Assembly: GCA_029862975.1 (NCBI GenBank)
Contig: JAOTWP010000002.1
Coordinates: 26,287 to 90,286, forward strand
Source: Acidobacteriota bacterium
GTDB taxonomy: Bacteria > Acidobacteriota > Thermoanaerobaculia > Multivoradales > JAHEKO01
Direction: 5' to 3'
DNA: 64,000 nucleotides
Within the stretch, counting starts at the first letter, position 1. Every line of letters begins with the position of its first letter. This document shows, in pieces, positions 36,501-55,172 of this stretch. The position numbers and the translations under genes are program-made. The notes under the pieces are model-generated. The model did not search any database. It saw only the letters and a list, made by a program, of their open reading frames with translations, and was not told the DNA's origin.

Positions 36501-39500
36501 CTACCCTCGGGCCCGTCGCCGCGAGATCACCTCGATGAAGCCGGGGAGAATCTCCAGATGATCGCCGAGCATATCGTGAATCGCGCCACGGCTCAGCTCG
36601 AGAAGCCTCGTCGGCGCAACGGCGGTGGCGTCGGCCGTTCGCGCCCCGGTCTGCACCGCGGCGATCTCACCGAGGGTGCCCAGCTCTCCGACCTCGGTCA
36701 GCAATCTGCCGTCCTTCTCGACCCGAACCCGGCCCTCGACGACCAGAACCAGCGTCTGCCCGGGCTCCCCTTCCCGAAACAGCGGCATGCCCTCGCGGAG
36801 ACTCATCTCCCTGGTGCCCGCGCAGTACGTCGCCAGCAGGCGCGAAGGCAGCCTGGCGAAGAGATCCGAGCTCTTGAAGACGAGCACCTTCTCGAACGCC
36901 AGCAGATTCCGGCGGCCGCTCCCGTCACCCTCCGACCCGGGCTCGAGAAGCACAAGAAGGGGCTGCCGCGCGCTCGCCGGCAGCCGCTTCACATGGTGCT
37001 CGAACGCCGCACGATCGATCTCCGCGAGCGCCCAGGCGGCGAGCTCGCGCACCATCGCGTCCGAGCTGTGGAGATTGGCGAGCAGCGGTTCGGGGACGCT
37101 CTTCTCGCCGAGCTCCACCCACGACTGGATGGCGGTGGCGCGGAGCCAGCCATCGGCCGTACGGCGACCCCGGCTCATGATGTCGAGGAGGCGGGCGGAG
37201 CGGCCAAGGAGGCGCTGCGGCGAGTGCGCGGCGAGGCGATGGAGCAACTGGGCGCGCGGCAGGCTCTCGAAGAGGGGTAGCAACAGGTCCCGCTGGCCGG
37301 GGGGTAGGATCTGGTCGGCGATCTCGACGGCGTAGGCTCGATCTTCAGTGTTCTCGGACGCGATCTGTTGGCGCAAGAGCTCGACCGTCTTGCCGTCGGC
37401 GATCAACGCCAAAAGGTGGAAGATGGTCTCGATCTCGCTCTCGATCTCCAGATCGAGAGCGCCGGCGAGAAGCTCGGTCTCGCGACCATCACCGAGATCG
37501 AGGCGCGAGGCGAGATACCAGGCGAGGGTATCGACGACCTTCTCGATTTGATTCTGGACGATCGATTCCTGCTCGCCCCGGGCGCGGAAACCGAGCATGC
37601 CGAGGGAGCGGATCGCCTGCCGCTCGACGCCGCGGTCGGGGAAGACGAGTCTGTCGAAAAGGAGACTTTCCGCCTTGACGCCGCCGATCCGCTCGTAGAT
37701 GCGGAGAATCCGCAACCTCGCCTCCGGAGAATCGTCGAAGCGCCCGAAAGCCGCTTCCAGGGAGTCGAGTACACCCTCTCCGGCGGTGATCAGGCTCGAG
37801 GCTGCCGCCTTGCAGAAGAGCCCGGACGGCAACTGTTCGATCAGGACGGGCCAGAACTCGGCCCGCCGAGTCTGGCCGGCGGCGATCAAGGCGCGGCGGC
37901 GCACGGCGATGTCGCTGTCCCGCATCAGCCCGAAGAGCGAGCGCGCGGCCACGAGATCGGTTCGCCGGCCGATCATGACGGCTGCCGACTCGCGCTGCGC
38001 GGGATCGCGGGATTGAGCCAGCGCCGCCAGCTGGGCGGGCGTCGCGTCGTCCTGCGCCGCCGCCAGGAGAGAGCGGGCCGCGGCGCGGGCGGCGGCCGTC
38101 ATCTGCGGCTCCGACTCGCGAGCAGCCGCTGCCGAGAGCGCCGGCACCGGGTCGAAGATCTGCTGTACCTCGATCGTCTCGTAGGCCATGCGGCGCAGCT
38201 CCGCACGGTCCGACGCCAGCAGCTCGACCAGCAGTAGCTCGAGGACGTTCGGATCGACCACCTTGAGCGCGTCCAACGAGTGCCTGCACTCGAGCGGTGG
38301 CGCGGCCTGCAGCCGCCGGAGGATGAGGTCGAGCGGCGAGGCGATGGAGGCTCCTCCCGGCTGCCTGGCCAAGGCCGAGAGCAGCTTCTGCTGGAAGCCC
38401 GCGTAGGTCGGACGAATCAGCGTGAGCCAGATGGCAAGAACCAGCGCCAGCGCTACGATGACCGGTAGCGAGGTCTCCGAGACACGGCCCAGGCCGAGCA
38501 GGATCGAGCCGGCCAGCAACAGGCCGACCGGTTTCGCCACGCCCTCCAACCGCGCCTGAACGGACAGCCGGACGTCCTCGGAGAGCGGCTGGAAGAGAAC
38601 CCTCTGCGACGGCTCGAAGATCGAGCGGCGCAGCACGAACTCCGCCATCTTCGCCACCAGCACGAGGATGAAGTAGAGCTCGCCGAGCGCGCCGATCACG
38701 CCGCTCAAGAGCGACAGCGCGACGAGGACGGCGAGCGCCACGGGAAGGGCCGAGAGTCCGACCACGACGCCGAATCGAGTGACGAGCCTGCCCGCCAGGA
38801 ACGTCTTCGTCAGAAGCTCGAACAGCTTGATGACGCCGAAGAAAAAGCCGAGGATCCCGGCCAGGGCCTCTGCGCCCTGGAACCGGGCGCGGGTCTCCAC
38901 GAGGAAGCTGAAGTCGACGAAGAAGAGCGTGAAGACCGACAGCGCCGTGGTCGCCGCCACGAGCACGAAATAGCGATCGGCGAAGACCGTCGACAGGGCC
39001 ATCCCGGGCTCGGTCGCCGCGGCGTCCCGGCGCGTCCTGCGGAGCTGGTCCGCGAAGCGGCGGAGGATCGCCTGCAGCACCAGCAAGGAGAGGATCAGCC
39101 CGCCGGCGGCCAGGGCGAGCAGGCCGGTCGAGCCGAGAGTGCCGACGAGAGCGGGGACGAGCAGGAAGCCGAGAATCTCCGAGACCACCTCGCCGGAGCC
39201 GAGGAGGCCGAACAGGCGCTTGCCCTGCTGCAGATCGAAGAGCCTCGCCGCCAACCCCCAGAAGCCGAGGTCGACGAGCGTCAGGACCGGCAGAATCATG
39301 GAGAACATGACGAACCGGATCCAACCGCCTCCGGGCAGATTCAGCCCGACCGCAAAGAGCGCGGAGAGCACGACGAGGAACGCCAGGTTGATCATCAGCA
39401 GTCGCTCGATCGACACGCGACGCTCGAGGCGCGAGAAGAGCGCGAGGATCAGATAGGCCAGGCCGCCGGAGAGGATGTAGGCCCAGGGCAGAACGCGGTA

Positions 39501-39677
39501 GTCGAACCGATCGAGAAACTGGGCGCTGGCGACGGAGAAGAAGAAGGCGATGAAGACGCCGATCCAGAACGAGTGCGCCCACAACAGGACGATGCGGGAC
39601 CCTTCGCCGGGTCGAATGTGCAGCCAGCGCTCGATCCGCCGCCCGCCACCGGCATCTTCGGCGGCGTCGAGGGGCAT
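36501..39677 (-). CDS. Multidomain membrane protein: an N-terminal 12-TM MFS/TLC (ATP:ADP antiporter-like) transporter domain, HEAT/PBS-lyase-like repeats, and a C-terminal cyclic-nucleotide-binding domain.
   Basis: Start is ATG 39677 (MPLDAAED...) with GGAGGAG 5 nt upstream. About 12 hydrophobic helices lie in the first ~450 aa. Repeated ...A..AL..L.D..V... HEAT-like units follow. The C-terminal cNMP-binding signature is GEPGQTLVLVVEGRVRV...LGTLGEIA. Confidence 0.65.
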   Translation of the reverse strand: MPLDAAEDAGGGRRIERWLHIRPGEGSRIVLLWAHSFWIGVFIAFFFSVASAQFLDRFDYRVLPWAYILSGGLAYLILALFSRLERRVSIERLLMINLAFLVVLSALFAVGLNLPGGGWIRFVMFSMILPVLTLVDLGFWGLAARLFDLQQGKRLFGLLGSGEVVSEILGFLLVPALVGTLGSTGLLALAAGGLILSLLVLQAILRRFADQLRRTRRDAAATEPGMALSTVFADRYFVLVAATTALSVFTLFFVDFSFLVETRARFQGAEALAGILGFFFGVIKLFELLTKTFLAGRLVTRFGVVVGLSALPVALAVLVALSLLSGVIGALGELYFILVLVAKMAEFVLRRSIFEPSQRVLFQPLSEDVRLSVQARLEGVAKPVGLLLAGSILLGLGRVSETSLPVIVALALVLAIWLTLIRPTYAGFQQKLLSALARQPGGASIASPLDLILRRLQAAPPLECRHSLDALKVVDPNVLELLLVELLASDRAELRRMAYETIEVQQIFDPVPALSAAAARESEPQMTAAARAAARSLLAAAQDDATPAQLAALAQSRDPAQRESAAVMIGRRTDLVAARSLFGLMRDSDIAVRRRALIAAGQTRRAEFWPVLIEQLPSGLFCKAAASSLITAGEGVLDSLEAAFGRFDDSPEARLRILRIYERIGGVKAESLLFDRLVFPDRGVERQAIRSLGMLGFRARGEQESIVQNQIEKVVDTLAWYLASRLDLGDGRETELLAGALDLEIESEIETIFHLLALIADGKTVELLRQQIASENTEDRAYAVEIADQILPPGQRDLLLPLFESLPRAQLLHRLAAHSPQRLLGRSARLLDIMSRGRRTADGWLRATAIQSWVELGEKSVPEPLLANLHSSDAMVRELAAWALAEIDRAAFEHHVKRLPASARQPLLVLLEPGSEGDGSGRRNLLAFEKVLVFKSSDLFARLPSRLLATYCAGTREMSLREGMPLFREGEPGQTLVLVVEGRVRVEKDGRLLTEVGELGTLGEIAAVQTGARTADATAVAPTRLLELSRGAIHDMLGDHLEILPGFIEVISRRRARG

Positions 39678-40396
39678 CAAGACTCCTCCGGTGGCGGCGG
39701 CACGGCGACGAACCAGGCATCCTCGGCATGCCGCTCCGGGGCAAGGAAGGCGACGACCTGGAACGGCGTGCTCTCGTAGAGCTGGCACAGCCGCTGCGGC
39801 TCATGGGCGGGAATCAGCGCGTAGTCGACGCCGGCCTCTCCGCCTTCGACGAAGCCACGGAGCCGCTCGCGATCGATCCGCTCGTCGACGAGGGGATCCC
39901 CGTCGAGCGGACGGGCGATCGCCAGCCGCGCGGCGCCGAACCCCGCGAGACGGGGGTACACCGCTTCGACGCTGTGCCCGCAGAGATTGATGAACGTGAC
40001 GAGCGAAGCATGATTGTGGGGCGCCAGGACGGCGCGCTGGGCGCCACAGCCGCGCAGCGACGCCGCAAGCGCCGAGTGGGTGACGAGATCGGCGCCGAGA
40101 CGCCGCCCCGCGAGCTCCTCCGCCACGGCCAGGCTGACGCAGTAGGAGGTGCTCTCTGCGTCGCCGTAGGTGCACTCGAGCAGCGAAGCGACGATCCGTC
40201 CGGCCCCGTCCTCGAGCAGAAGCGGATGGCCGAACCGCACGAACCGATAGAGATCGTAGGCGGTCACCATCTCCAGGGCGGGGGACGAGAAGCGAGTGGC
40301 CAGGAAGGCCTCGATCGCCGGGACGTCGTCGATCCCCGGCGCGCGCAGCCGCAGCCCGAGCCGCGCGAAACGCCGCTCGAGCTGCTCGATGCGCAC
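39677..40396 (-). CDS. GNAT-like acetyltransferase-fold protein (start uncertain).
   Basis: C-terminal ~200 aa show a GNAT-like pattern (GRRLGADLVTHSALAASLRGCGAQRAVL). The proposed GTG start at 40396 (VRIEQLERRF) is weak. The stop overlaps the downstream ATG by 1 nt (TGATG). Confidence 0.35.
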   Translation of the reverse strand: MRIEQLERRFARLGLRLRAPGIDDVPAIEAFLATRFSSPALEMVTAYDLYRFVRFGHPLLLEDGAGRIVASLLECTYGDAESTSYCVSLAVAEELAGRRLGADLVTHSALAASLRGCGAQRAVLAPHNHASLVTFINLCGHSVEAVYPRLAGFGAARLAIARPLDGDPLVDERIDRERLRGFVEGGEAGVDYALIPAHEPQRLCQLYESTPFQVVAFLAPERHAEDAWFVAVPPPPEES

Positions 40397-40488: not shown

Positions 40489-43191
40489 TCACCGATCGCC
40501 GCCGCTTCCGGTGGGAGAGGAGATCCCGACGCGAAGCGACAGGACTCTTCCGGGCTGCGGCAGGATCGACGCGAAGAACGTTCCGTCCGCCAGCCTCACG
40601 CCGGGGTCCGAGTAGGTCTCGGCCAGCAGATTCGTGGCCGACAGCCGAAGCGACCACCGAGACGCGGGTCGACGGTAAGCGAGCGCCCCGTCGAGGACGA
40701 AGTGGGAGTCGATGCGGGCGAGCGGATTGAGCGGGACCGTCGTCAGGCGTCCGGTGGGGCGCTCGCCGACGAAGTTGGCCCGCAGGTTGAAGTTCCAACC
40801 ATCGTCGCGGTGGTAGTTCGCCCCGGCGTTCGCGCGGTGACTGGCGATGTCGCCGATCCTTCGTTCCTCGAGGGTCTGCGTCGTCGCGCTCAAGACCTCG
40901 CCCTTGGGGTCGGTAAAGGTGTAGTTGGCGTAGAGGTCCCAAGCGCCGCGCTGCCAGGAGGCGGTCGCCTGGAGACCGCTGATCTCGCGGCCGCCGCGAT
41001 TGACGTTGCGCCCGGTTCCCGAATCGCCGAACGGCTCGATGGCAACGGCGGCGCTGTAGTCGGCGCGATAGTAGGCGAGGTCGAGGTCGAGGTCCTCCCG
41101 CGGCTGCCAGCCGACGCTGAGCTCGAGGTTCTTCACCTTTTCGGGCGCCAGGTCAGGGGCCTGAAGCTCGCGGGTGCTCGGCGCCGTGGCGTAGCGATTG
41201 AAGTTCGACGCGTCCTTGAAGGCCTCGCTGTAGATCGCCTTGACGACATAGCGGTCTCGCAGGTGAATGAGACCGAGCCGCGGGTTGAGGACGGTGCCGT
41301 AGCCCGAGACCGTGACCGGCTCGCCATCGGCGCCAAGGACGTCGCGGCCGGCCTGAGAGACGTGATTGTCGTCCAACCTGCCACCAGCGACGAGCTTCCA
41401 GCGATCGGACAGCCGGTAGCTGGCCTGGGCGAACACGCCGATATCGGTCTGGTCGAACGACTGGCCGCTGGAGCAGTTCTCGGCTCCCCCGCTCGTGACG
41501 CAAAAGAAGGGCTGCTCGCGGGCGTTGGCAAAGCCAACGCCTGCGGGACGCTCGAACCTCAGGTTGTAGTCGCCTTGAATCTGGCTCGTCCGCACCTCGA
41601 GACCGCCGACCAGGCTGAGCCTGCTCGACGGTCGCCAGTTCAGGGTGATCTCGTTCCTGAACTGCTGGGAAGACTGGCTGTACTCGGTCGTCTGGAAGTA
41701 CGCGGGTATCCCGTTGGCGAGATCCTCGGCGTCGAGGCTGCCCTTGCTGTAGTTGCGCAGCTGCAGCTCGCCCGTGCCGTCGGCCAGCTTGTGCCGCTTG
41801 AAGCGGCTGAACACCGTGAGACCGAGCCGCCCCGGAATCAGGTCGTCCGCGTACTTGGCGTAGAAGAAGAGCTGGCTGGGGATCCACAGGGTGCCGCTGT
41901 CGGCGCCGGTGAACAGCTGGTCGGTAAACCAGCTCGTAAAGCCCTCCTCGCGCCGCCACGTCTGGAAGCCGGCCGTGAACTTGCGGGAGACGGAGATCCG
42001 GCCGTGGATCAGCCAGTCATCGGTGCGATCCGAGAACCGCAGGGGAGCGCCGAGGCTCGACAGCGCAGCCTTGTCGAGGTCGCGGGCGAGCGCGGCACCC
42101 TCACCCAGATGATCGTAGCCGCCGCGATCGAAGTAGAGGTCGTAGAAGCCGGGATCGTAGTCCCAGTAGCGAACGGACGACGGCGTCGCCGGGTCTCCGG
42201 GCAGAAAGCGCGGCCCCGAGAAGCCGGAGAGGTCGAGCTCGTCCGAGGTGTAGGTACGCGCGGCGAGAGAGAACGCGACCTTGCCCAGCACGCGACCGGC
42301 GACGAGAGCGTCGACGAAGCTCGTGCCCAGCTCGGCACCGCCGACCTCGACGTCGTAGAAGAACGATTCGCCCTCCGGCGTCAGATTCTCGGGGTCCTTG
42401 GTGATCACGTTGATGACGCCGACGAAGGCGTTGGGACCGTACATCGTCGTGGCGGGCCCGTAGATCACCTCCACGCGCTCGATGTTGCGCAACGGATACT
42501 GGCGAGAGACGTAGGCGATGTTCGACCACAGATCGTTCTCCTCGACGCCGTCGACGAGAAACAGGGTCCGGTCGGTGCTGTCGGAGCGATAGCCGCGAGG
42601 ATAGACGTTGGAGTAGAGAATTCCGTTGCCGCGCGAGATGTCGAACCCGGGCAGGTCATGAAGCACCGCTGCGAGATCGAGATACCCGCGGCGGGCGATC
42701 TGCTCGCCGGTGATCACCTCGACGGTGGCCGGCGCTTCGCGGAGACTCTCACTGGTCTTGGAGACTGAGCTCACGACCACCGTCGCGCCGCTCGACTTGA
42801 GCTGGGCCACGAGGCGCTTGAGGCGTGGGGGGTCGGCGCGGGCGGGCTCGTAGGCCGGGAGCTCATCGAGCACACGCGCGATCCAGGTCTCCGCCATCTC
42901 GAACTCGTCGCGTCCGAGATGGGCCTTGGCGAGCAGGATCTCGGCTTCGGTTCGATCCCGCCCACGCAAGCGCTCGTAGCATTCGCCAACGGTCTCCAGA
43001 ACGAGGTCGAACCGGCCGAGTCGGTAGGAATCCTCGGCGCCGTCGAGGTCGCAAGCGACGCCCTCGCCGGAGGCCTGGGCTCGCAGCCCGCCCGCACCCA
43101 GGAGGAAGGCGACCACCGCGATCGGCAGCAGGCCTCGCCGGCGCCGCGCCAGGCCTTTCGTGGCTCGACTCCTAAGGACAGGTTGCCTCAT
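40489..43191 (-). CDS. TonB-dependent outer-membrane receptor.
   Basis: Signal peptide. N-terminal extension and plug domain (TVVVSSVSKTSESLREAPATVEVITGEQI, TonB-box-like), IYGPATTMYGPNAFVGVINVITK, and a 22-strand barrel-length C-terminus. Confidence 0.8.
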   Translation of the reverse strand: MRQPVLRSRATKGLARRRRGLLPIAVVAFLLGAGGLRAQASGEGVACDLDGAEDSYRLGRFDLVLETVGECYERLRGRDRTEAEILLAKAHLGRDEFEMAETWIARVLDELPAYEPARADPPRLKRLVAQLKSSGATVVVSSVSKTSESLREAPATVEVITGEQIARRGYLDLAAVLHDLPGFDISRGNGILYSNVYPRGYRSDSTDRTLFLVDGVEENDLWSNIAYVSRQYPLRNIERVEVIYGPATTMYGPNAFVGVINVITKDPENLTPEGESFFYDVEVGGAELGTSFVDALVAGRVLGKVAFSLAARTYTSDELDLSGFSGPRFLPGDPATPSSVRYWDYDPGFYDLYFDRGGYDHLGEGAALARDLDKAALSSLGAPLRFSDRTDDWLIHGRISVSRKFTAGFQTWRREEGFTSWFTDQLFTGADSGTLWIPSQLFFYAKYADDLIPGRLGLTVFSRFKRHKLADGTGELQLRNYSKGSLDAEDLANGIPAYFQTTEYSQSSQQFRNEITLNWRPSSRLSLVGGLEVRTSQIQGDYNLRFERPAGVGFANAREQPFFCVTSGGAENCSSGQSFDQTDIGVFAQASYRLSDRWKLVAGGRLDDNHVSQAGRDVLGADGEPVTVSGYGTVLNPRLGLIHLRDRYVVKAIYSEAFKDASNFNRYATAPSTRELQAPDLAPEKVKNLELSVGWQPREDLDLDLAYYRADYSAAVAIEPFGDSGTGRNVNRGGREISGLQATASWQRGAWDLYANYTFTDPKGEVLSATTQTLEERRIGDIASHRANAGANYHRDDGWNFNLRANFVGERPTGRLTTVPLNPLARIDSHFVLDGALAYRRPASRWSLRLSATNLLAETYSDPGVRLADGTFFASILPQPGRVLSLRVGISSPTGSGGDR

Positions 43192-46100
43192 AGGGGAGAT
43201 CCTCGGGGAAGAAGCGCGCCCATTGCGCGCTGGTTAGACTTCGCGACAGGCGCGAGCAGATCGCGGCGACGAGCTCCTCGCTGCCGGTGGCCCAGCTGCG
43301 GACCGCGCCGTCGGCGCCGCCGGAGAAGAGCCGCCGGACGTCCGGGTGGAAGGCGACCGCCCAGACCCAGGAGTCGTGGCCGGAAAGAACGAGCGGATCG
43401 CTCTCGTAGAGGGGACCCGACCAGATCCTCACGGTACCGTCGGAGCCCGCCGAAGCGAGGAGCTCGCCATCTCTGGCGAAGCGCAACGAGTTGACGCTCG
43501 AGCGGTGGCCGACGAGGCGGCGCGGCGCGGCGTTCGAGCCGAGCTGCCAGAGGAAGACGTCGCCGCGCAAGTTGCCGACGGCGACGACGTCTCCGGCGGG
43601 GTGAAAGGCGAGCGACCGGACGTCGGTCAGACCCGGGTCGCCGCCGCCGCGCCCGCCGACGACCGTGGCGAGCGAGAGCTCGTAGCGGCGGCGAAACGCC
43701 CCGTCTGCGGCTTGCCACACGCGGACGAGGCCCTCTCCTCCGGCGGCCGCCAGCAGGCTCGCGTCGGGAGCGAAGTCGACCGCCGTGACCCTTCCCGAGA
43801 TCTCGAGATCGCTGCCCGACGCGGGATCGGCCGCTTCGCTCCACACCCGTACCCGGCCGCTGGAAAGTCCTGCGGCAAGCGTGCCGGAAGACGAGAAGGC
43901 GAGCGCGGAGACGATCGCTCCCGGTTCGAAGAAGACTTCCGTCTCCGCGGGAGAGGCGCCGAGCGCGAGGATCCGGACACGCCCCTCGACGTCGCCCACT
44001 GCGAGGCGCCCACCCTCGGCATCGAGGGCGAGGGAGCGCACGCCGGCGCCCGGCGCCAGGGAGAGCGGCTTCATGGCGGGAGCACTCGGGTCGAGAACGT
44101 GGATCTGCCCGCTGTCGTCTCCCGAGACGAGGATCGAGCCATCGGCAGCCACCGCCAACGCCCGGACCTGATCGTCATGCCCGGGGAGCCGCCCGCGGGT
44201 CGGATCGAGCTTCGACACAGCGCCCAGGAGGGCATCGTAGATCTCCGCGTTGCGGGGCTCTCCCTCGCTCGACCGATTGAGGCGGTAGGCCTCGACCGCG
44301 ATCAGCGCGGCGAGCTCTGGACCCTCCTCGGCTGCGAGACGGGGCACGCTCACCGCCAGGCGGCGGGCGAGCTCGAGCCGCCGGAGTCGCTGGGTCTTGG
44401 CCTCGGCAGCGCGCGCCTGTCGGGCCGCCTGCTCCGCTTCACCCTGGCTCTTGAGGGCGAGCTGCTCGTTGCGAGCCGCTTCCCGCCTGGCCCTCGCTTC
44501 CAGCGCCTGCGCCTCGAGCGCTCGCGCCCTCTCCTCCTCGGCCCGGCTCTGGGCACGCAGCGCCGTCTGCTCGCTGGCGACGGCCTTCTCCCGCGCAAGC
44601 CTCTCGGCCGCCTGGGCCGAGAGTGCCCGTGCCCTGTCCTCTTCGGCCCGCCGCTTGCTGCGCAAGGCCTCCTCCTCGCTCGCGAGCGCTTCCTCCTTGG
44701 CCCTGGCCTCGCGCGCTACCGCCACTTCGGCACGACCGAGCGCTTCGTCGGCCTGGCCCTTGGCGACCAGCGCCCAGCCGAAGAGAACAAGGATGACGCC
44801 GACCGCCAACGCCGAACCCAGCGCGACCATCCGCAACCCTCGCAGCTTGCGCCTGCGGCGCTGATCCTCGCGGGCCATTTCGCGCTCGCGCTCCGCGCGG
44901 CTGAGCTCGAGGAACGTCGCGGCGCGCTCGTACGAGGGGTCGTAGCGCTGCGCCCAGGCCTCGGTGGGCTGGGCCGACTCGCGCCAGCTGAGCGCCAGCT
45001 GCAGCTCGGGATCGCGCAGCAGCCCGCCCTGGCCATCCTGGTAGCGCGCCGCCGCCGCCGCCAGACGCAGGTAGACCTGGGCGCCCTGGGCCTCCTGATC
45101 CACGAGCCTGCGCAGCCGGGTCCAGACTCGCATCAGGCTCTCGTGCGAGATGTCGACGACGGAATCCGACCGCAGCTCCTTGCCGACCGGAGGGATGAGG
45201 AACGAGCGCCCCGGGCTGCGAAAGACCTCGACCACCCTGCGCACCTCCGATTCCGACAGGCCGGTCACGGCGCAGATCTCCGCCACGCTCGACGGACGGC
45301 GGATCCCGCGGCCGTCGATACCCTTCTCGGTGATGCACTTGAAGAGCTTCTCGGCGCCGTCGATCGCCCCCTCGGTGCCGAGCTCCACGAGTGCTTCTTC
45401 GGCGTGCAGGGACAGCGCTTCGCGGGTCGTACCGATGGCCTCGTAGTGACGCAGATCGAGGGGCTCGTCATCGATGTGGTTGCGCTCCCAATAGTCCCAG
45501 GTCCGCATCAGGGAGTGCTGGAGGATCGGCAGCTCATCGGGGTCGTCGCCGCCGTCGTTGAGCAGCCGGAGAACCAGCCGCTCGGCGATCTCGGCGCCAC
45601 CCACCGCCACCGGGCCGGTGATCGCCGAGCGCCGCTCTTCGCGCGTCATCCGCGGGATCAAGTAGAGGCCGCGGTTGATCGCGCCTGGCAGATCCTGGAA
45701 CTCCGTGCAGTTGCCCAGGAAGTCGGAGCGCATCGTGAGCACCACGAAGATCGGACGTTGCTGCTGCCTCGAAGCCTCGAGAAGCAGGGTCATGAAGGCG
45801 GTCGATTCGTCTGTGGAGGCGAGCCGCGCGGCGCTGCGCTTGAAGCGGAAGATCTCCTCGAACTGATCGACGAGGATCAACAGGTTCTCGTCCTCGGGGA
45901 GCCCGGATTGCCGGACGGCCTCCGTCAGACCCTGGCCGCCACGGCGCAGCGTCGCCTCGATGATGGCGCTGCGCGTGGCGTGGGGCGTGCCGTCGGCTGG
46001 CAGCACTTCCGGATCGCCGAGGCTGGCGGCGAGGTTGCCGAGCGGATCGTCGCCCGGACGCAGGATCGCGATCCGCCAGGAGGATCCGGCCGCGGCGAGG

Positions 46101-46318
46101 TAGCCGCTGTAGAGATAGGGGATCAGACCGGAGCGCACGAGAGACGACTTGCCGCTGCCGGACGCTCCGACGACGGTGAGGAATCGAGACCTGTCGAGAC
46201 GTGCCAGCAGCTCGTCCACCTCCGACTCGCGGCCGAAGAAGAGGTGGTCCTCCCCCGGCTCGAACGGTCTCAGGCCTGGAAACGGATTGAACGTCGTCGT
46301 GGCGTTCGAAACTGCCAT
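43172..46318 (-). CDS. STAND-class P-loop NTPase with a single TM helix, a long coiled-coil and a C-terminal WD40 beta-propeller.
   Basis: N-terminus FFGRESEVDELLARLDRSRFLTVVGASGSGKSSLVRSGLIPYL (Walker A). Walker B LLILVDQFEE. TM helix LRMVALGSALAVGVILVLFGWALVA. ~200 aa of Ala/Glu/Arg-rich heptad-like sequence follow. Then come at least six WD-like repeats (GHDDQVRALAV..., GHRSSVNSLRF..., SGHDSWVWAVAF...). Confidence 0.75.
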   Translation of the reverse strand: MAVSNATTTFNPFPGLRPFEPGEDHLFFGRESEVDELLARLDRSRFLTVVGASGSGKSSLVRSGLIPYLYSGYLAAAGSSWRIAILRPGDDPLGNLAASLGDPEVLPADGTPHATRSAIIEATLRRGGQGLTEAVRQSGLPEDENLLILVDQFEEIFRFKRSAARLASTDESTAFMTLLLEASRQQQRPIFVVLTMRSDFLGNCTEFQDLPGAINRGLYLIPRMTREERRSAITGPVAVGGAEIAERLVLRLLNDGGDDPDELPILQHSLMRTWDYWERNHIDDEPLDLRHYEAIGTTREALSLHAEEALVELGTEGAIDGAEKLFKCITEKGIDGRGIRRPSSVAEICAVTGLSESEVRRVVEVFRSPGRSFLIPPVGKELRSDSVVDISHESLMRVWTRLRRLVDQEAQGAQVYLRLAAAAARYQDGQGGLLRDPELQLALSWRESAQPTEAWAQRYDPSYERAATFLELSRAEREREMAREDQRRRRKLRGLRMVALGSALAVGVILVLFGWALVAKGQADEALGRAEVAVAREARAKEEALASEEEALRSKRRAEEDRARALSAQAAERLAREKAVASEQTALRAQSRAEEERARALEAQALEARARREAARNEQLALKSQGEAEQAARQARAAEAKTQRLRRLELARRLAVSVPRLAAEEGPELAALIAVEAYRLNRSSEGEPRNAEIYDALLGAVSKLDPTRGRLPGHDDQVRALAVAADGSILVSGDDSGQIHVLDPSAPAMKPLSLAPGAGVRSLALDAEGGRLAVGDVEGRVRILALGASPAETEVFFEPGAIVSALAFSSSGTLAAGLSSGRVRVWSEAADPASGSDLEISGRVTAVDFAPDASLLAAAGGEGLVRVWQAADGAFRRRYELSLATVVGGRGGGDPGLTDVRSLAFHPAGDVVAVGNLRGDVFLWQLGSNAAPRRLVGHRSSVNSLRFARDGELLASAGSDGTVRIWSGPLYESDPLVLSGHDSWVWAVAFHPDVRRLFSGGADGAVRSWATGSEELVAAICSRLSRSLTSAQWARFFPEDLPYEATCP

Positions 46319-46327
46319 GATCGTCTC

Positions 46328-47821
46328 CTATGCCTCCACCGCCGCCAGGAAAGGCTCGAGCGACTCGACCGAGAGGCTGTCCGGACACTTGATGACGACC
46401 GCTTCGTGGGTCCGGAACTGCTCCTTCTCCGGCGATGCCGGCTGGGCCACCAGGATCGCCTTCGCGCGCATCGGCTCGGTGCGGCCATAGCCGGCGATCT
46501 TCTTGAGCTCGCGGAGCTTGGAGCGCAGCCAGAGCGACTTCGCATGGCCGTAGTAGATGAGGACTGCGTCGCAGATCTTGAGATTCTCCTCGTGGTCCGT
46601 CCGGACCTCGGAGGCCTCCCCCTCGAAGATCGGCAGCGCGACCTCGAGGCCGCGGTCGTAGAGTAGATCCCCCACCGTTCGCACCTCGTCGATGTCCTTG
46701 CGGTCGCAGATCAGGTAGACCAGGCTCGGGCCGTCCCCGCCGGCCGCGGCGGCCCTCGACCCGCCGTTGGCGGTCACCTTCGGCGCCAGCTTGCCGAGGA
46801 TGGCCGCCTTGAGCTCCTCGAGCGAGGTCTCGAAGAGATCCGCGCCGCCGAGAGTGGCCGGGTCGGTGCGCAGGGCTTGAAGCAGGCTGCGCTGTCGCTC
46901 GTCCTCCGCCTCGACGCCAGGCTGGATCCAGACGACGCGATCGAAGCCGGCGCCGGCGGCCCGCTCGATGGAGAGCCGGTTCTGAAGGTCGGCGAGCGAG
47001 TGGTTGGCGCCTTCGGGAACCACGCCGTAGCTCTTCCCCATGAGGTGAACCGACAGCTGGCACCGGGCGAGGATCTCGGGCACCCGGCGGGCGATCTCCG
47101 AAGCCACGGGTGGCAGGGCCTCCTGCGGCTCGACCGTGTAGCCGCGTTGGACGAGGTCGCGCTTGACGGCGTCTCGCGCTTCCCTGAGCCCGAAGGTCGC
47201 CTCCGCGAGGAAGACCCGTTTGCCGGAACCCTCGGCCGGGGACTTCATGGCCGGAGCCGGAGCACCCTCCGCGGCGGCGGCCTCCGATTCCAGGAGCCGA
47301 GCGATGTCCGAGGCCAGATCGTCGAGGGCCGACCAGTACTTGCGCTCTCGCTCCGGTCCCGAGAAGAGGTTGTACTCACGGACCCGCTCGGTCTCGGGAT
47401 CGAGGGAGAAGAAGTCGTAGCCCAACAGGCCGCGGATCTCCTCCGGCTGGCTCTCGAGAGGAATCGGGGTCTTCGTCACCTTGAAGAGACGGCTCTTGTT
47501 CGCGATCGTCAGATCGCCCCCTCGCCGCTTCGCGTCGAGGAAGCCGGTGAGCTCTCGCAGACACCACTCCGACCGCACGTAACGCGGCGACAGCACGGAG
47601 ACCATCGTCGAGACGCTCGCGAAGCGGTCGGCGATCTCGCCTGCGAAATCGTCGTTGCCCTGCAGCTTGGGATCGCGCCACACTCGCGGCTCGCGGCCCA
47701 GCAACTGCCCGAGGCGGACCTTCAGCGAGTGGTGGAAGCTCGAGACCCACCCCTCCTGGTCGGGAACCAGCGGTTGATTGTCGATGTGCGCGTAGCTGAC
47801 GAAGACGTCGTTCTCTGCCAT
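46328..47821 (-). CDS. TIR-domain protein with two further TIR-like/flavodoxin-fold (DUF4062-like) domains.
   Basis: N-terminus MAENDVFVSYAHIDNQ...WVSSFHHSLKVRL...VLSPRYVRSEWCLREL is a canonical bacterial TIR. Two further Rossmann-like modules follow (KRVFLAEATFG...CQLSVHLMG; SLVYLICDRKD...CDAVLIYYG). The stop lies 9 nt upstream of the NTPase ATG, with AGGAG overlapping the stop. Confidence 0.75.
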   Translation of the reverse strand: MAENDVFVSYAHIDNQPLVPDQEGWVSSFHHSLKVRLGQLLGREPRVWRDPKLQGNDDFAGEIADRFASVSTMVSVLSPRYVRSEWCLRELTGFLDAKRRGGDLTIANKSRLFKVTKTPIPLESQPEEIRGLLGYDFFSLDPETERVREYNLFSGPERERKYWSALDDLASDIARLLESEAAAAEGAPAPAMKSPAEGSGKRVFLAEATFGLREARDAVKRDLVQRGYTVEPQEALPPVASEIARRVPEILARCQLSVHLMGKSYGVVPEGANHSLADLQNRLSIERAAGAGFDRVVWIQPGVEAEDERQRSLLQALRTDPATLGGADLFETSLEELKAAILGKLAPKVTANGGSRAAAAGGDGPSLVYLICDRKDIDEVRTVGDLLYDRGLEVALPIFEGEASEVRTDHEENLKICDAVLIYYGHAKSLWLRSKLRELKKIAGYGRTEPMRAKAILVAQPASPEKEQFRTHEAVVIKCPDSLSVESLEPFLAAVEA

Positions 47822-48025
47822 TCTCAGCTCATCGCCCGCCCGCGCGGTCCACCGCCGCGCCGCTCCCGACGACGCCCTCGAGGGGTTGACTCGAATGGGG
47901 ATGGCACCCTCGATCCCATGCGAGTTGAAAACAAGGTACTACAGATCTTCCCACATCGGCGCGCCGCATCGCACCGGGTGCTCGGTCGTCCGCCGGCTCC
48001 CGGAGGTGCTCGAGAGGGTCCGGCG

Positions 48026-51000
48026 TCAGGTCGCCGCGCGGGCGATCGACGGCGCCCCGCTCGCCTCCCGGCGCCGGGCGTGGTAGCGATGGACCTGGTG
48101 CGCGAACGCCTCGAGACGAGCCTCGCCCGAGCCGCCGGTGCCGTCGCCGTAGACGAGGGTCGTCATCGGGACGTCGTCGTGGTCCGCTCGCAGGCGGTCG
48201 AGCAGCGAGGCCGAGATCGTCCCCACCATGCAGTTGAGGCAGATCGCGTTGACCACTCCGGACGCGCCGTGGCGCGCGAAGTCGATCATCTTCGACAGGT
48301 TGAGCAGCGCCAGGTAGTTCGCCTCCGGCGGGGCATAGGGAGCGGTCGCCGCGAGGACCTGCGCATAGGTCGGCTCGGGACGGGCGGCCATGACGAGGGC
48401 GCCGCGAACCCGCGCCGCCGCGTGATGGCGCAGGGCCTCGAGCAGCGTGGCCGTCAGGAGCTCGCGAATCCGCCACTGCCGCCGCGCCTGCCGCGCCCAG
48501 CGTGACGCGGTGAAGTCGACCGTGTCGACCAGCGTGGGGGCGGGCCAGACCTCGCAGCCGAGCGACTCCAGCCGGCGGAAGAGATCGTCGCTGGCGAAGC
48601 CGTTGACCCGCGTGTAGACGTCGCCCGCCACGCCGACCGCGGGCCGCGGAGGCGAGCGGTCGATGGCGATCGCGGCGAGGTCCTCGCCGGCGCGGCGCAC
48701 CGCCTGCTCGAGACCGCCGCTCTCCACCGCTTCCTCGACGCGCCGCAGGTTGGCCCGGTGGACGGCGTCCGTCCGCCCGGGCTCGAGCTCGTACGGTCGC
48801 AGCGAGCAGGCTGCCTTGAGCAGGAGATCGACCGCCACCAGGCCCTGCCAGAAGAGGTAGAGCCCGTGGAAGCCGAGCAGCGACGAGAAGTGCTCGGTGG
48901 TGTGGGGAGTGACGACGTCAATCCGCGGCGGGGCCAGCCCGCGCAGCCCGTGCAGCATGGCATCGCGGTACTGGGGCAGGAGGCAGGGGACGGCGGTGCC
49001 GGGGAAGAGGAAGGCGTCTCCCTCCCGCGACCCGCCGGCGCTCGCCAGGCTGGAGAGGTCGCCGGCAAGAATGCTGAACACGTGGCACTCCCGGCCGGAG
49101 GCCATCCGGGCGCCGAGCCGGCGCTTCGCTTCGTCCGGCGGCGGCAGGACGACGGCCTCGTGACCGGCCCGGCGCAGAGCGCCGGCGTAGGCGTGGACGT
49201 GATCGGCGAAGTGGGGCAGGAAGTAGCGACGGCTGGCCGGCGTCCGGCGGGTCTCCCCGCGGGCGGGGCCGCGGCGCACCGCGGACCCGGTCCGCCGCCG
49301 GCAGAAGGCGTCGATCTCGTCCGCGAAGGCTTCCAACCGGGTGATCAGCCCGGCTTCGGCGCGGTGCTCGTCGACCTCCAGGACGAGCTGGGGCCGGTTC
49401 TCGAGCAGCGCCTCGAGATGGCGCACGGTGAACCCGTCCGGCCCGCAGCCGAAGCTCGAAATGGCCAGGGGGAACAGGCGGGGATCGTCGCGCGCGAAAA
49501 GCGCCGCCCGTACGTAGTCCCGATTGGTGCCCCAGGGAAGCTCGGACCACCGCTCGTCGAGACTCACCTCGTCGAGCGGCAGGCACTCCATGGGCATGAA
49601 GGGCAGTCCGAGGCGGACCAGGTGGCGCCCCAGGCCCAGGTTGAGGAACGGGTCGAGGAGGTTGTAGGGCTTGCCGAGAACGACCACCAGCCGATCGCCG
49701 CGGCGCGCGAGCAGCTGCCGTCCGAGGGCCCGCATGCGCCCGCGGAACCGCTCCTGGGCGCGCAGGCCAGCGGCCAGGGCCGCCTGCAGGAGGTCGGGCT
49801 CGATGCCCAGCCGGGCGGCGAGCCCTTCGGGCTCGAGGATCCGTTCTTCGGCGAGCTCGACGCGGGGGGCGAGAAGCTCCACCCCGAGGGCGGCCCGGAC
49901 CATGAACGGCAGGTAGTGGGTGTAGGGGCAGGTGTGGCCGGCGGGGGACGAATCCGCCGGGCCGGGCGGCACCGACAGCACGGAGGGAAGGAGGATCGTC
50001 CGGACCCCGCGGGCGAGCAGATCGCGCACGTGGCCGTGGGCCATCTTGACCGGCAGGCAGGTCTCCGCCCGGATGTCGCCGAGCGCCGCCGCCAGGATGG
50101 ACGGCGAGCTCGGAGCCGAGAGCACCGCTTGCCTGCCCGCCGCCCGCACCAGCGCCGCCCACACCGGCAGCCAGGCGAGGGCGAGCCCGGCCCGCGGGAT
50201 GCCCACGGCGCTCGTGGGGTCGACGGCGCCGTCGGCTCCGGCAGCCAGACCGGCCTCCTCGAGCAGCGCCGCCTCCATCACCGCCAGATGGTCCTCGGCG
50301 GCGGCGCCGCCGGCGGGCGCCGCCGCCTTGCTGGTGTAGCGCTCGCAGGTGTCGCCGAAAAAGAAGCTCTCGGCGCCCGAGCGCAAGCGGTTCACCTGAC
50401 AGCGGTTGGAGCACAGCGGGCACTCGAAGCTGCGGTCGATCTCGCCGCTGCACGCGGTGAAGCCCTTGAACCGGGTGCTCTCGGCTGGCCGCCGCGTCGC
50501 CCGTCGGTCGAGAACCAGCAGCGCGGCGCCGACGGCCCCCGAGAGGCGGTTCCAGGGATGGACCTGGACCGGCCGCCCGAGGCTTTGCTCGAGCGCCGCG
50601 ACGACCGCCCGGTTCGACGCCGTCCCGCCCTGGAAGAACACCCGCCGGCCGATCGGTCGCCCCGCCACGACCCGGTCGAGGTAGTTGCGCACCACCGACA
50701 AGGCGAGGCCGGCGACGATGTCGTCGCTCGCGGCCCCGTGGCGCAGCGCGCGAGCGACCTCGCTGTCCATGAACACGGTGCAGCGGCTGCCGAGATCGAC
50801 CGGCGACGGCGCGCGCAAGGCGCGCTCGGCGAACTCCTCCTCGATCCGGATCCCCAACCTCTCGGCCTGCTCCTCGAGAAACGACCCGGTGCCGGCGGCG
50901 CAGATCTTGTTCATCGTGAAGTCCACGATGTGACCATCTCTCACCTGGATGTACTTCGAGTCCTGGCCGCCGATCTCGAGCACCGTGTCGACGTCGGGAA

Positions 51001-52246: not shown

Positions 52247-52355
52247 CAGGAGCTCTCCACGGGCTGCTGGCTGCTGCCCCATGATCGGGCACCGCTCGCC
52301 GCCGCGCACCACCCCCCGGGGCGGCCGACCCGCCACCCCGGCGATCGCGGCGGGT

Positions 52356-54258: not shown

Positions 54259-55172
54259 CGCGGCACCTCGACAAGGCTCGTCGCGAGCTCCTCTTCCCGC
54301 GCGGCCGCGCGCCGGCAGTCGTGGCGGACCTTCTCGACCTCGCCGCCCGGATCGGCCAGGAAGTCCGAGAGCGACCGGCTCTCGGCGTCCCGGTACATGG
54401 CGTTGCGCTGCGCGAGCACCGCGAAGTCGACCTCGTGGGCGTCGAACTCGGGTCCGTCGACGCAGGCAAACCGGCTCTCGCCGCCGACCAGGACCCGGCA
54501 GCCGCCGCACATGCCGGTGCCGTCGACCATGATCGAGTTGAGCGAGACGATCGTCGGCACGGCCCAGGGGCGGGTGACCTCGGCCACCGCGCGCATCATC
54601 GGCACCGGGCCGATGGCCAGCACGCGGTCGATGCGCCGCCCCGACTCCAGCCATTCGAGAAGCGGCCCGGTCACGAGACCACGGCGGCCGTACGAGCCGT
54701 CGTCGGTCGTCACGACCAGCTCGGCGGAGACGGCGGCGAGCTCGGCCTCGAGGAGCACCAGCTCGCGGCTGCGGCCGCCGAGGATCGTCAGCACCTCGTT
54801 GCCGGCGCGCCCCAGGGCCACGGCAGTCGGATAGGCGATGGCGGCGCCGACGCCGCCGCCCAGCACCGCCACCGTGCCGAAGCGCTCGACCTCGGAAGCC
54901 CTCCCCAGCGGACCGACGACGTCGAGGATGGCGTCCCCGGCGGCGAGCGAGTTCATCAGCTTCGTCGTCTTGCCGATCCCCTGGACGATCAGGGTGATGG
55001 TGCCCGCCGCGGCATCGGAGTCGGCGATCGTGAGCGGGATGCGCTCGCCGTCGGCATGCAGGCGGACGATGACGAACTGCCCGGCCTGGCGCTTGCGCGC
55101 GATGCGCGGCGCCACGATCCGGAAGAGCCGGACGCCGGGCGCCAGGGGGCGGGACTCGCGGATGGGAAACAC
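54255..55172 (-). CDS. PyrK/SudB/NfnA-like FAD/NAD(P)-binding and [2Fe-2S] electron-transfer subunit.
   Basis: GTG start at 55172 with GGAGG 9 nt upstream. N-terminus VFPIRESRPLAPGVRLFRIVAPRIARKRQAGQFVIVR resembles the start of PyrK/SudB. C-terminal Cys cluster MCGGCRV...CVDGP. Confidence 0.7.
   Translation of the reverse strand: MFPIRESRPLAPGVRLFRIVAPRIARKRQAGQFVIVRLHADGERIPLTIADSDAAAGTITLIVQGIGKTTKLMNSLAAGDAILDVVGPLGRASEVERFGTVAVLGGGVGAAIAYPTAVALGRAGNEVLTILGGRSRELVLLEAELAAVSAELVVTTDDGSYGRRGLVTGPLLEWLESGRRIDRVLAIGPVPMMRAVAEVTRPWAVPTIVSLNSIMVDGTGMCGGCRVLVGGESRFACVDGPEFDAHEVDFAVLAQRNAMYRDAESRSLSDFLADPGGEVEKVRHDCRRAAAREEELATSLVEVPR

Follow-up and report, generated by a model that had tools for sequence, protein, structure and literature searches.

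A conserved operon joining TIR and STAND genes to a TonB-dependent receptor: a candidate trans-envelope NLR-like module

All experimentally characterised bacterial STAND/NLR-like immune proteins that we know of sense their triggers inside the cell. Here we describe a gene cluster in a 64,000-nucleotide stretch of DNA from an Acidobacteriota bacterium (contig JAOTWP010000002.1 of assembly GCA_029862975.1; hereafter the window, to which all coordinates refer unless a locus number precedes them). The cluster encodes a TIR-domain protein, a STAND NTPase with one transmembrane (TM) helix and a C-terminal WD40 propeller, a TonB-dependent receptor (TBDR)-like outer-membrane protein and a predicted inner-membrane protein with 12 TM segments, all on the minus strand. 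An earlier note on this DNA, made from the sequence alone, had proposed the first two genes as a candidate two-gene module for defence or death signalling, related in its parts to Avs and Thoeris. We found that the TIR and STAND genes are part of a larger conserved, co-oriented and tightly packed operon. The reading that we favour, and to which we give even chances, is that this operon encodes a trans-envelope NLR-like sensor relaying an outer-membrane receptor event to a TIR NADase in the sub-clade of loci that carries the TIR gene.

The NTPase belongs to nSTAND1, a STAND clade of predicted counter-invader or conflict systems (Kaur, Iyer, Burroughs & Aravind 2021, PMC8195603). The systems described there share with this locus the NTPase family (PF20703), the use of TIR and other effectors, and C-terminal repeat sensors. 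They are, however, soluble and carry the effector or adaptor in the same polypeptide, whereas here effector and NTPase are encoded by separate genes, and a TM helix stands between the NTPase and the repeat sensor. The searched text of PMC8195603 contains neither 'TonB', 'outer membrane' nor 'periplasm', and its six mentions of 'transmembrane' do not concern nSTAND1; 'TonB' and 'outer membrane' are likewise absent from a second paper of the Aravind group.

Avs proteins, including PsAvs2 with its DUF4062/NIR effector (bioRxiv 2026.09.04.749371), show the same grammar of effector, STAND NTPase and repeat sensor, a TIR or NIR NADase glutamate, and an expected oligomerisation. They differ in being single cytoplasmic chains whose phage ligands, terminase or portal, are bound within the cell. 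At the locus described here a gene of its own encodes the effector, the predicted place of the sensor is extracytoplasmic, and outer-membrane and 12-TM proteins are obligatory partners. DUF4062/NIR domains act as NADase effectors in Swarozyc, Avs2, Vulcan and Vesta, according to two preprints (bioRxiv 2026.05.01.722283, 2026.09.04.749371), and form the required core of Evangelion, for which bioRxiv 2026.06.25.731849 does not directly show enzymatic activity. Thoeris, Swarozyc, Vulcan, Vesta and Evangelion resemble the window's locus in having a TIR fold with a catalytic glutamate, and the DUF4062-like domain found here is, among solved structures, nearest to that of KpSwz; unlike the DUF4062/NIR systems, it has a glutamine at the catalytic position. 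Three tandem TIR-like domains, as found here, are not among the architectures in the accessible preprint text on these systems. Effectors of Thoeris and Pycsar read nucleotide signals, and the cNMP-binding domain of the 12-TM protein possibly does likewise.

Two groups of envelope systems offer further comparisons. FecA-FecR-FecI also combines a TBDR bearing an extra N-terminal periplasmic domain with a coupled single-pass inner-membrane protein whose C-terminus is periplasmic, and relays an outer-membrane event to the cytoplasm. In the window, however, the receptor extension is TPR-like instead of STN, the place of the anti-sigma factor is taken by a STAND-WD40 protein, and there is no ECF sigma factor. 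The cytoplasmic N-terminus of FecR is small, whereas here it is a large NTPase; and the output of the Fec system is transcription, whereas that proposed here is the TIR or the 12-TM protein. TolA/TolB-Pal and TonB-ExbBD share the inner-membrane anchor, a long Ala/Glu/Lys- or Arg-rich periplasmic helix, and a propeller or C-terminal domain that contacts outer-membrane proteins, TBDRs included. They are powered by proton-motive-force stators and not by a STAND NTPase, have no sequence relationship to the proteins described here, and serve to energise transport or maintain envelope integrity.

Eukaryotic counterparts resemble the locus in other respects. Animal Toll-like receptors sense through repeats outside the cytoplasm, cross the membrane by a single TM helix and signal through a cytoplasmic TIR domain. 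In the window, by contrast, the TIR domain is on a separate protein and is probably an enzyme, an NLR-type NTPase is interposed, and the repeats are WD40 (or TPR in related loci) rather than leucine-rich repeats; we treat this likeness as analogy only, with no homology beyond the TIR fold. TEP1/NWD1 (NIR-NACHT-WD40) and Apaf-1 bring together a TIR-like NADase domain, a STAND NTPase and WD40 repeats, but as soluble single chains of a different STAND clade (NACHT/AP-ATPase) that lack a membrane or outer-membrane partner. Our search of the literature, in a corpus that is incomplete, returned no paper linking STAND, TIR and TonB-dependent receptors, nor one describing a STAND protein with a periplasmic sensor. 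A STAND-TBDR module with extracytoplasmic sensing coupled to an outer-membrane receptor appears to be undescribed.

Domain architecture and predicted topology

The STAND protein opens with an nSTAND1 NTPase module that matches PF20703 over model positions 1-374 of 379 (E 2.3e-90; 304 bits against a gathering score of 27). Its Walker A motif, GASGSGKSS, spans G51-S59 and its Walker B motif is D151-Q-F-E-E155; residues G51, S53, G54, G56, K57, S58, S59, D151, Q152, E154 and E155 are invariant in 79 homologues. The module begins at aa 12 with no effector domain N-terminal to it, and Pfam finds no DNA-binding or other output domain in the protein. A TM helix follows the NTPase and is preceded by the segment RRRRKLRGLR, giving seven Lys/Arg in the 15 residues before the helix versus two after it. 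The same bias is present in 77/79 database homologues (mean 7.1 versus 2.3) and in 59/60 STAND proteins of the TIR-seeded loci described below (6.9 versus 3.0), and every complete STAND open reading frame (ORF) of those loci places the helix near residue 490-517. Given this strong charge bias, and the dependence of the NTPase on ATP of the cytoplasm, we infer an N-in/C-out topology in which the stalk and the propeller should lie in the periplasm.

An AlphaFold2 (AF2) model of the STAND protein (mean pLDDT 82.9) places helices beyond the membrane at residues 526-585, 597-665, 667-683 and 691-704, with low confidence up to about residue 610 and a confident, well-packed helical domain at 620-704. 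The stalk is rich in alanine (27%), glutamate (17%) and arginine (16%). In Foldseek comparisons the propeller best matches a Thermomonospora WD40 structure (PDB 5yzv; TM-score 0.92), and Apaf-1 is a full-length structural match. C1021 and C1047, in the cap that follows the propeller, are invariant in the 79 homologues; we did not use them as a mark of a periplasmic disulfide, because cytoplasmic actinobacterial WD40 proteins can have a similar ...TCP tail.

Much of what the earlier note had read from this protein held: the STAND-type P-loop NTPase (nSTAND1 at 304 bits, Walker A GASGSGKSS), the single TM helix at aa 500-518 (Kyte-Doolittle 2.4) and the WD40 propeller (seven blades at aa 718-1010). 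The coiled-coil of about 200 residues that it described is indeed helical, but only some 100-140 residues form low-confidence helix (526-585 and 597 to ~620) before the packed domain begins. Its membrane-tethered sensor has the anchor, but the note understated the topology, as the charge bias predicts the WD40 domain outside the cytoplasm. Avs-like sensing of cytoplasmic phage proteins is therefore unlikely.

The TIR protein is predicted to be cytoplasmic and comprises three TIR-like alpha/beta domains. Domain 1 matches TIR_2 (PF13676) at aa 6-101 (E 7.7e-11; 43 bits against a gathering score of 28), so that the profile searches the earlier note had called for return genuine, above-threshold TIR_2 and nSTAND1 matches. 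Within its SEWCLREL motif lies E90 (codon 47552-47554), which aligns with the catalytic E100 of plant RUN1, the glutamate of the alphaC-helix WxxxE motif that corresponds to E642 of SARM1; the sequence of PDB 7s2z has an alanine there, confirming the register. E90 is invariant among 105 homologues of the TIR protein. The domain is thus the canonical TIR that the earlier note had recognised, with the catalytic glutamate it had proposed to look for, and from these residues domain 1 is predicted to be a catalytically competent NADase.

The two further TIR-like/DUF4062-like modules of that note do have TIR-like folds, but only domain 1 keeps the catalytic glutamate. For domain 2, the match to DUF4062 (PF13271) reaches 16.7 bits, under the gathering score of 24.7, and many homologues of the TIR protein bear a precomputed PF13271 match. 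Searches of the PDB with the single sequences of domains 2 and 3 returned nothing; only a profile of domain 2 reached a structure, the DUF4062 domain of KpSwz (best match, E 0.0056). Aligning residues S275-L-A-D-L-Q280-N-R-L-S284 with the deposited KpSwz mutant sequence S-F-T-E-K-[E97A]-F-D-Y-A places glutamine Q280 (codon 46982-46984) at the position of the catalytic glutamate, and domain 2 lacks the DUF4062/NIR motif S-x-T-E-x-E-[FY] that contains E97 of KpSwz and E108 of PsAvs2. All 17 aligned homologues have this glutamine, as do at least 90% of the 105. According to the preprints, an E-to-Q change at this site abolishes defence in PsAvs2, Vulcan and VstA (bioRxiv 2026.05.01.722283, 2026.09.04.749371).

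Because the catalytic glutamate is replaced by a conserved glutamine, domain 2 is probably a pseudo-enzyme, related in fold and inactive as an NADase, that would act as a scaffold or nucleotide-binding domain. Such a natural E-to-Q replacement would be a ready example of a pseudo-enzyme domain inside a TIR assembly. Domain 3 has K435 at the canonical glutamate position and a conserved E438 one helical turn further on. The protein does not belong to FxsC, the TIR-like protein of the FxSxx-COOH system: its score for NCBIfam NF040588 is 55.5 bits, where the cut-off is 130.

In some relatives of the TIR protein (P0056 and P0115) a protein-kinase domain is fused on, and in locus L039 a 901-aa Ser/Thr kinase is the product of the gene that follows STAND, so that kinase modules look like alternative partners. 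Other homologues (P0007, P0012, P0015, P0020 and more) are about 660-680 aa long, with 70-85% of the query aligned in the BLASTP summary.

The TBDR-like protein has a signal peptide (aa 1-39, cleavage AQA|S), a plug (Pfam Plug, E 2.7e-20) and a matching barrel (E 2.8e-39), so that its hidden Markov model matches cover the parts expected of a TBDR, including a 22-strand barrel. Between signal peptide and plug lies an N-terminal extension with weak TPR matches. This extension is conserved and contains conserved cysteines; some homologues have TPR Pfam matches in it, and in a PDB search it matches no solved TBDR. A TonB-box-like strand, TVVVSSVSK, precedes the plug. Pfam detects no STN signalling domain in the receptor, and there is no sigma or anti-sigma factor among the neighbouring genes; the system may work in the manner of FecA-type transducers but does not belong to them. 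The closest solved structures are Cir (E 2e-36), BtuB, PhuR and PirA/FepA. Receptors of these types are also exploited by colicins and phages.

All-against-all clustering of flanking ORFs identified the 12-TM gene, further downstream. Its product has 12 hydrophobic segments with weak similarity to TLC ATP/ADP transporters (E 0.003) and to MFS, HEAT repeats (HEAT_2, E 1.5e-13) and a C-terminal cNMP_binding domain (E 4.6e-14), the last of which is seen in Acidobacteriota versions of the protein. Bacteroidota versions, about 845 aa long, have no Pfam match.

Conservation and co-divergence of the gene cluster

We scanned 185,579 species-representative genomes, one per species, with an alignment of the TIR protein. 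At least 528 carry a relative, scattered over at least eight phyla, and gene order was counted in the best 80 loci of these carriers (the TIR-seeded loci). These 80 span Acidobacteriota of several classes, Bacteroidota, Cyanobacteria and Proteobacteria (Woeseiaceae, Geobacter), as well as Poribacteria, Dormiibacterota, Rhodothermales and Chitinivibrionales. Two cultured organisms are among the carriers, Sediminibacterium ginsengisoli DSM 22335 and Mucilaginibacter polytrichastri RG4-7. An nSTAND1 gene directly follows the TIR gene in 78/80 loci, a pairing far beyond chance; the adjacency across genomes that the earlier note had proposed to check is real and extends over many phyla. In the two remaining loci (L026 and L028, from Thermoanaerobaculia metagenome-assembled genomes, or MAGs), the same strand carries an nSTAND1-WD40 gene some 5 kb upstream of the TIR gene. 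Database searches returned hundreds of full-length homologues for both the TIR and the STAND protein, and identical TIR and STAND proteins are present in an Acidobacteriota MAG.

The conserved unit extends beyond this pair. A TBDR homologue (31-47% identity) directly follows the STAND-WD40 gene in about 35 of the 80 loci, across phyla, and in 23 of the loci a homologue of the 12-TM gene lies 3' of the TBDR gene. Across related loci the module genes overlap or sit less than about 150 nt apart, and the closest database homologues of the window's TBDR share contigs with TIR and STAND homologues. Of the two-gene operon, then, the adjacency stands, but the unit is larger: the receptor and 12-TM genes are conserved with it.

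Because this first sample was seeded with the TIR protein, we assembled a second one from the receptor, by looking up three distant TBDR homologues (37-41% identical; Ignavibacteriaceae, Bacteroidales and a metagenome contig) and by scanning contigs of metagenomes with an alignment of the TBDR. All three look-ups encode an nSTAND1-WD40 protein, the TBDR and a homologue of the 12-TM/HEAT protein of ~840-1050 aa (tblastn), and none has a TIR gene. Among the 84 TBDR-seeded loci, where there was enough room on the contig (at least 3.3 kb for the STAND gene), the STAND gene lies directly upstream of the TBDR gene in 47/53 loci and a 12-TM gene lies downstream of it in 46/59. A TIR gene is adjacent to the STAND gene in 12 of 41. 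STAND proteins of the TIR-less loci match the others in length (median 1032 aa), in the position of the TM helix and in charge bias, and their NTPases are mostly 37-52% identical to that of the window, versus mostly 51-63% in the TIR sub-clade. The conserved core therefore consists of the STAND-TM-WD40 protein, the TBDR and the 12-TM/HEAT protein, and the TIR protein belongs to one sub-clade. The TBDR is a conserved partner of the STAND gene and not an incidental neighbour. Looking for an alternative effector 5' of the STAND gene, we found that TIR-less loci have nothing there but unrelated housekeeping genes; genes around these loci encode an ABC transporter, Mfd, isoamylase, DAHP synthase and PurK.

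In two TIR-less loci, from an Ignavibacteriaceae MAG (L081:15632-19360) and a Bacteroidales MAG (L082:14200-18003), the STAND-TBDR-12TM/HEAT triplet is followed by a hybrid sensor kinase with Reg_prop, Y_Y_Y, HisKA and HATPase domains. In L081 a response regulator-SpoIIE phosphatase follows the kinase in turn.

A second class of module, seen in Terriglobia-type loci, keeps the NTPase and TM helix, and its STAND protein ends in TPR and not in WD40 repeats. In the product of this class's third gene, a signal peptide and a Pro/Ser/Thr/Gln-rich linker precede a domain of some 300 aa whose end, ...EYRYSF, is an outer-membrane beta-signal with terminal phenylalanine; this gene gives weak matches to the Phenol_MetA_deg barrel family. 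That a different repeat module pairs with a different outer-membrane protein supports an envelope location, and two repeat modules each with its own outer-membrane protein are hard to explain otherwise than by a periplasmic C-terminal half of the STAND protein. An apparent STAND-TM-TPR/barrel fusion in locus L043, which would have supported export of the C-terminus, was rejected: an internal signal peptide, SMKRLLVFLLLLPVAAVAQEP, marks a separate gene. In 16 loci of the TPR/small-barrel class, an adjacent gene encodes a protein of about 775 aa with RyR and TPR-S (PF20308) domains, an unassigned centre and a class III adenylate/guanylate cyclase, and in several of them this gene ends 20-250 nt before the TIR gene. 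This arrangement is a hint that these modules are linked to cyclic-nucleotide signalling.

A third class (L047:11494-15537, L055, L037, L007 and L075) has TIR-linked STAND proteins of about 1170-1380 aa with many more WD40 repeats after the TM helix; L047, with roughly 12 units, may have two propellers. Downstream of the STAND gene in this class there is no obvious gene for an outer-membrane protein.

Other variation concerns copy number and the genes upstream. Three MAGs carry two divergent TIR-STAND copies each, on different contigs (L003/L012, L004/L020 and L007/L059), consistent with paralogous diversification. In 20 Bacteroidota loci the TIR gene is closely preceded, on its own strand, by a conserved gene whose product of about 646 aa begins with TM helices and contains a TrkA_N domain (an NAD-binding Rossmann fold); in six loci an AAA ATPase gene lies further upstream. 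This NAD(H)-binding membrane protein may be functionally linked to the predicted TIR NADase.

We compared how the parts of the module diverge. Between-locus distances are correlated among the TIR protein, the NTPase and the TBDR (r 0.81-0.97 over 30 loci; Mantel p 0.001). With the NTPase held constant, the WD40 domain and stalk still track the extension, plug and barrel of the TBDR (partial r 0.61-0.76 over 71 loci; p 0.001 in the three WD40/stalk-TBDR partial comparisons tested by permutation), whereas NTPase and TBDR distances no longer go together once those of WD40 are controlled for (partial r 0.04-0.14). Rate saturation alone is insufficient to account for this pattern, because the slowly evolving plug behaves alike. 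Two readings of the co-divergence remain: physical co-evolution, or a linked recombination block made up of the 3' half of the STAND gene and the TBDR gene.

Weighing the explanations

Taken together, we consider an envelope-spanning architecture likely. In the sequence of events that we propose, engagement of the outer-membrane receptor by a ligand, phage or bacteriocin, or movement of its plug, would change its periplasmic face, and the WD40 domain and stalk of the STAND protein would read that change. The signal would cross the inner membrane and permit nucleotide-dependent oligomerisation of the NTPase, and the oligomer would in turn cluster and activate the TIR protein. Domain 1 would then cleave NAD+, leading either to depletion, with growth arrest or death, or to a nucleotide signal; the 12-TM/HEAT/cNMP-binding inner-membrane protein would complete the unit. 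Activation of the TIR protein by the STAND protein is, in our estimate, a proposition that could fall either way, and a role against phages or bacteriocins is possible but tentative. The logic of such a relay would be like that of FecA-FecR or of a Toll-like receptor with an NLR-type switch in the middle, by analogy and with membership of neither.

A bolder version, which we think rather unlikely, would make the module a bacterial counterpart of Toll-like and NLR immunity combined. A periplasmic WD40 sensor would guard a TBDR of the kind through which phages and colicins enter and, by way of an NLR-type NTPase, fire the TIR NADase ahead of the invader's passage through the envelope or during it; in the TIR-less core the effector would be the 12-TM/HEAT protein, and the TPR and small-barrel class would be a second solution of the same design. 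If the trans-envelope reading is true, a repeat sensor that is exported and genetically tied to an outer-membrane receptor would bring NLR logic to cell-surface surveillance. This would be a prokaryotic analogue of Toll-like receptor signalling, and also a TonB-dependent transducer of a new kind, coupled to an NTPase switch where others have an anti-sigma factor. The two cultured carriers make the idea directly testable.

Several points weigh against the trans-envelope reading. Periplasmic placement of the propeller draws on hydropathy, charge bias and genomic context, and most WD40 propellers of bacteria reside in the cytoplasm. Of the three TIR-like domains, two have no catalytic glutamate at the canonical position. 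A recombination block could yield the observed co-divergence without physical co-evolution. About 70% of the TBDR-seeded loci have neither a TIR gene nor an alternative upstream effector, and NAD+ cleavage is therefore not the family-wide output.

Defence searches weigh on the same side. No PADLOC (2023) family matches the STAND protein (E<=0.01) or the TBDR protein, and the TIR protein gives marginal matches only, to SAVED_TIR (E 6.6e-4, aa 46-100) and PDC-S66 (E 7e-3, aa 3-101); the PADLOC scan that the earlier note had suggested lends its defence reading next to no support. The cNMP-binding domain of the 12-TM protein weakly matches PADLOC PDLC00731 ('Effector', 'TIR'), PycC and PycTIR (E 2e-6 to 9e-5), which could reflect generic cNMP similarity. 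There is no cyclase in the window, and the class III cyclase of the TPR-class loci is without a PADLOC match. The window is not a defence island; the module's neighbours in it are metabolic or housekeeping genes.

The strongest rival, which we consider somewhat unlikely, is a non-immune system for envelope signalling or uptake. Here the TBDR and 12-TM protein would form an import route across the outer and inner membranes, the STAND-WD40 protein would be a FecR-like regulator, and the TIR protein would be a lineage-specific accessory that makes or consumes a nucleotide signal for the cNMP-binding domain. The composition of the core fits this: the STAND-TBDR-12TM triplet is what is conserved, the TIR gene is present in the minority of TBDR-seeded loci counted above, and the TIR-less loci lie among housekeeping genes. 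So do the intact plug and barrel of a receptor whose nearest relatives (Cir, BtuB, PhuR, FepA) are nutrient receptors, the weak TLC/MFS similarity and cNMP-binding domain of the 12-TM protein, the Reg_prop/Y_Y_Y histidine kinase added in some loci and the RyR-TPR-S-cyclase protein added in TPR-class loci, and both the PADLOC result for STAND and TBDR and the lack of a defence island. Regulatory STAND proteins, however, normally bear a DNA-binding or output domain, which is lacking here, and nSTAND1, TIR and DUF4062 are all strongly tied to conflict systems. The patchy distribution across phyla, with multiple divergent copies in some genomes, speaks against this rival, as does the exchange of a whole sensor together with its outer-membrane partner (WD40 and TBDR for TPR and small barrel), which is typical of conflict systems; and the invariant TIR glutamate argues for real NAD+ chemistry. 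Even with no immune role, the module would count as a trans-envelope system for signalling or transport that had gone unrecognised, found in hundreds of species from Acidobacteriota, Bacteroidota and further phyla.

The model of the earlier note, a cytoplasmic two-gene antiphage system of Avs or Thoeris type, would have the WD40 domain sense a phage protein, the hydrophobic segment merely tether the protein or not span the membrane at all, and the TBDR be unrelated. A TIR protein with its glutamate, a STAND NTPase and a repeat sensor do follow the grammar of Avs and bacterial NLR-like proteins, and WD40-STAND proteins such as Apaf-1, the full-length structural match, are cytoplasmic. The TM helix with its positive-inside bias is nevertheless found in every complete homologue, the receptor gene adjoins the STAND gene across phyla and in nearly nine-tenths of the TBDR-seeded loci with room for it, and the TBDR co-diverges specifically with the WD40 domain and stalk. 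The second class moreover pairs another repeat with another outer-membrane protein. The PADLOC models for Avs and for ThsA and ThsB of Thoeris are unmatched, no effector is fused to the N-terminus as in Avs, and the sensor is predicted to be extracytoplasmic. We regard this model as improbable.

That these are housekeeping genes of an acidobacterial clade, with no conflict or signalling role, is very improbable: homologues about 50% identical are syntenic in many Thermoanaerobaculia and Holophagales MAGs and the window's flanking genes are metabolic, but the scatter of the relatives (at least 528 of the 185,579 genomes, in at least eight phyla) contradicts this counter-case of the earlier note, the flanks are not conserved, some genomes hold two divergent copies, and the catalytic glutamate is retained.

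Locus layout and flanking genes

The features of the locus are collected in Table 1. The two ORFs described in the earlier note, of 497 and 1048 aa, are where it placed them in the ORF list, and the sequence bears out its 9-nt gap (GAGACGATC) with a Shine-Dalgarno sequence, AGGAG, for the STAND gene overlapping the TAG stop of the TIR gene. The TBDR gene starts 20 nt ahead of the end of the STAND stop codon, in agreement with the 20-nt overlap reported there.

Table 1. Features of the module in the window and of associated genes in related loci. Locus numbers (L) denote loci of the samples described in the text.
Feature	Position	Strand	Basis or description
Intergenic region 5' of gene 1	47822..48025	.	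204 nt
Gene 1, TIR protein	46328..47821	-	ORF, 497 aa
TIR domain 1 (aa 1-185), canonical TIR	47267..47821	-	TIR_2 match, catalytic Glu motif SEWCLRELTGF
TIR domain 2 (aa 200-348), DUF4062/NIR-like	46778..47224	-	Sub-threshold Pfam and PDB profile match
TIR domain 3 (aa 363-497), TIR-like alpha/beta	46331..46735	-	AF2 secondary structure, pLDDT > 90
Spacer between genes 1 and 2	46319..46327	-	9 nt, GAGACGATC; sequence read
Gene 2, STAND protein	43172..46318	-	ORF, 1048 aa; predicted single-pass inner-membrane protein
nSTAND1 NTPase module (aa 12-429), predicted cytoplasmic	45032..46285	-	PF20703
TM helix (aa 500-518, LGSALAVGVILVLFGWALV)	44765..44821	-	Kyte-Doolittle score 2.4
Predicted periplasmic helical stalk	44207..44764	-	aa 519 to ~620 low confidence, plus helical domain 620-704
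7-bladed WD40 propeller (aa 718-1010) and C-terminal helical cap, predicted periplasmic	43175..44206	-	Pfam WD40 E 1e-40, AF2
Gene 3, TBDR-like outer-membrane protein	40489..43191	-	ORF, 900 aa
TBDR N-terminal extension (~95 aa, aa 40-135), TPR-like	42787-43074	-	Weak TPR matches
Small GNAT-like ORF	39677..40396	-	~239 aa; between TBDR and 12-TM genes
Gene 5, 12-TM/HEAT/cNMP-binding protein	36501..39677	-	1058 aa; predicted inner-membrane protein
TrkA_N protein, examples	L008:1679-3619, L030:8035-9975, L035:8024-9979, L062:8032-9966		
RyR-TPR-S-cyclase protein, examples	L019:6069-8366, L036:7408-9786, L042:7601-9961, L049:7514-9982, L021:14852-17122		

The region 5' of the TIR gene presumably contains the operon promoter. 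The earlier note had described it as lower in GC, with a TTGACT box and a short palindrome. Its GC content (0.691) is not lower than that of the TIR gene (0.677), and TTGACT, at 47886, lies on the plus strand, antisense to the operon; we found no sigma-70-like promoter on either strand of the region. The palindrome exists (CCCTCGAGGG, at 47875), but is only 10 nt long.

Between the TBDR and 12-TM genes lies a small ORF whose weak GNAT match, to Acetyltransf_1 (E 0.005), stays under the cut-off. The ORF ends in a TGA that shares bases with the start codon of the 12-TM gene, the ATG at 39677 (TGATG), and the Shine-Dalgarno sequence GGAGGAG precedes this ATG. No homologue of the small ORF lies between the two genes in related loci, and in L001, L003 and L030 the TBDR gene abuts the next gene; the ORF is probably a lineage-specific insertion.

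Upstream of the module, positions 48026-52336 of the minus strand encode a 1436-aa fusion of two BcrAD/BadFG ATPase domains and DUF2229 (CoA-enzyme activase), which adjoins the module in 0/80 TIR-seeded loci. Beyond it, at 52816-55518 on the same strand, is a 900-aa ORF with C-terminal Fer4_20 and Pyr_redox_2 domains, similar to GltD and dihydropyrimidine dehydrogenase, and a long N-terminal part without a Pfam match at E<=1e-4. This ORF overlaps a 659-aa ORF in another frame, and its gene model is uncertain in such high-GC DNA. Besides the CoA-enzyme activase and the GltD-like oxidoreductase, the module's neighbours in the window include a PadR regulator, a hydrolase and a methyltransferase.

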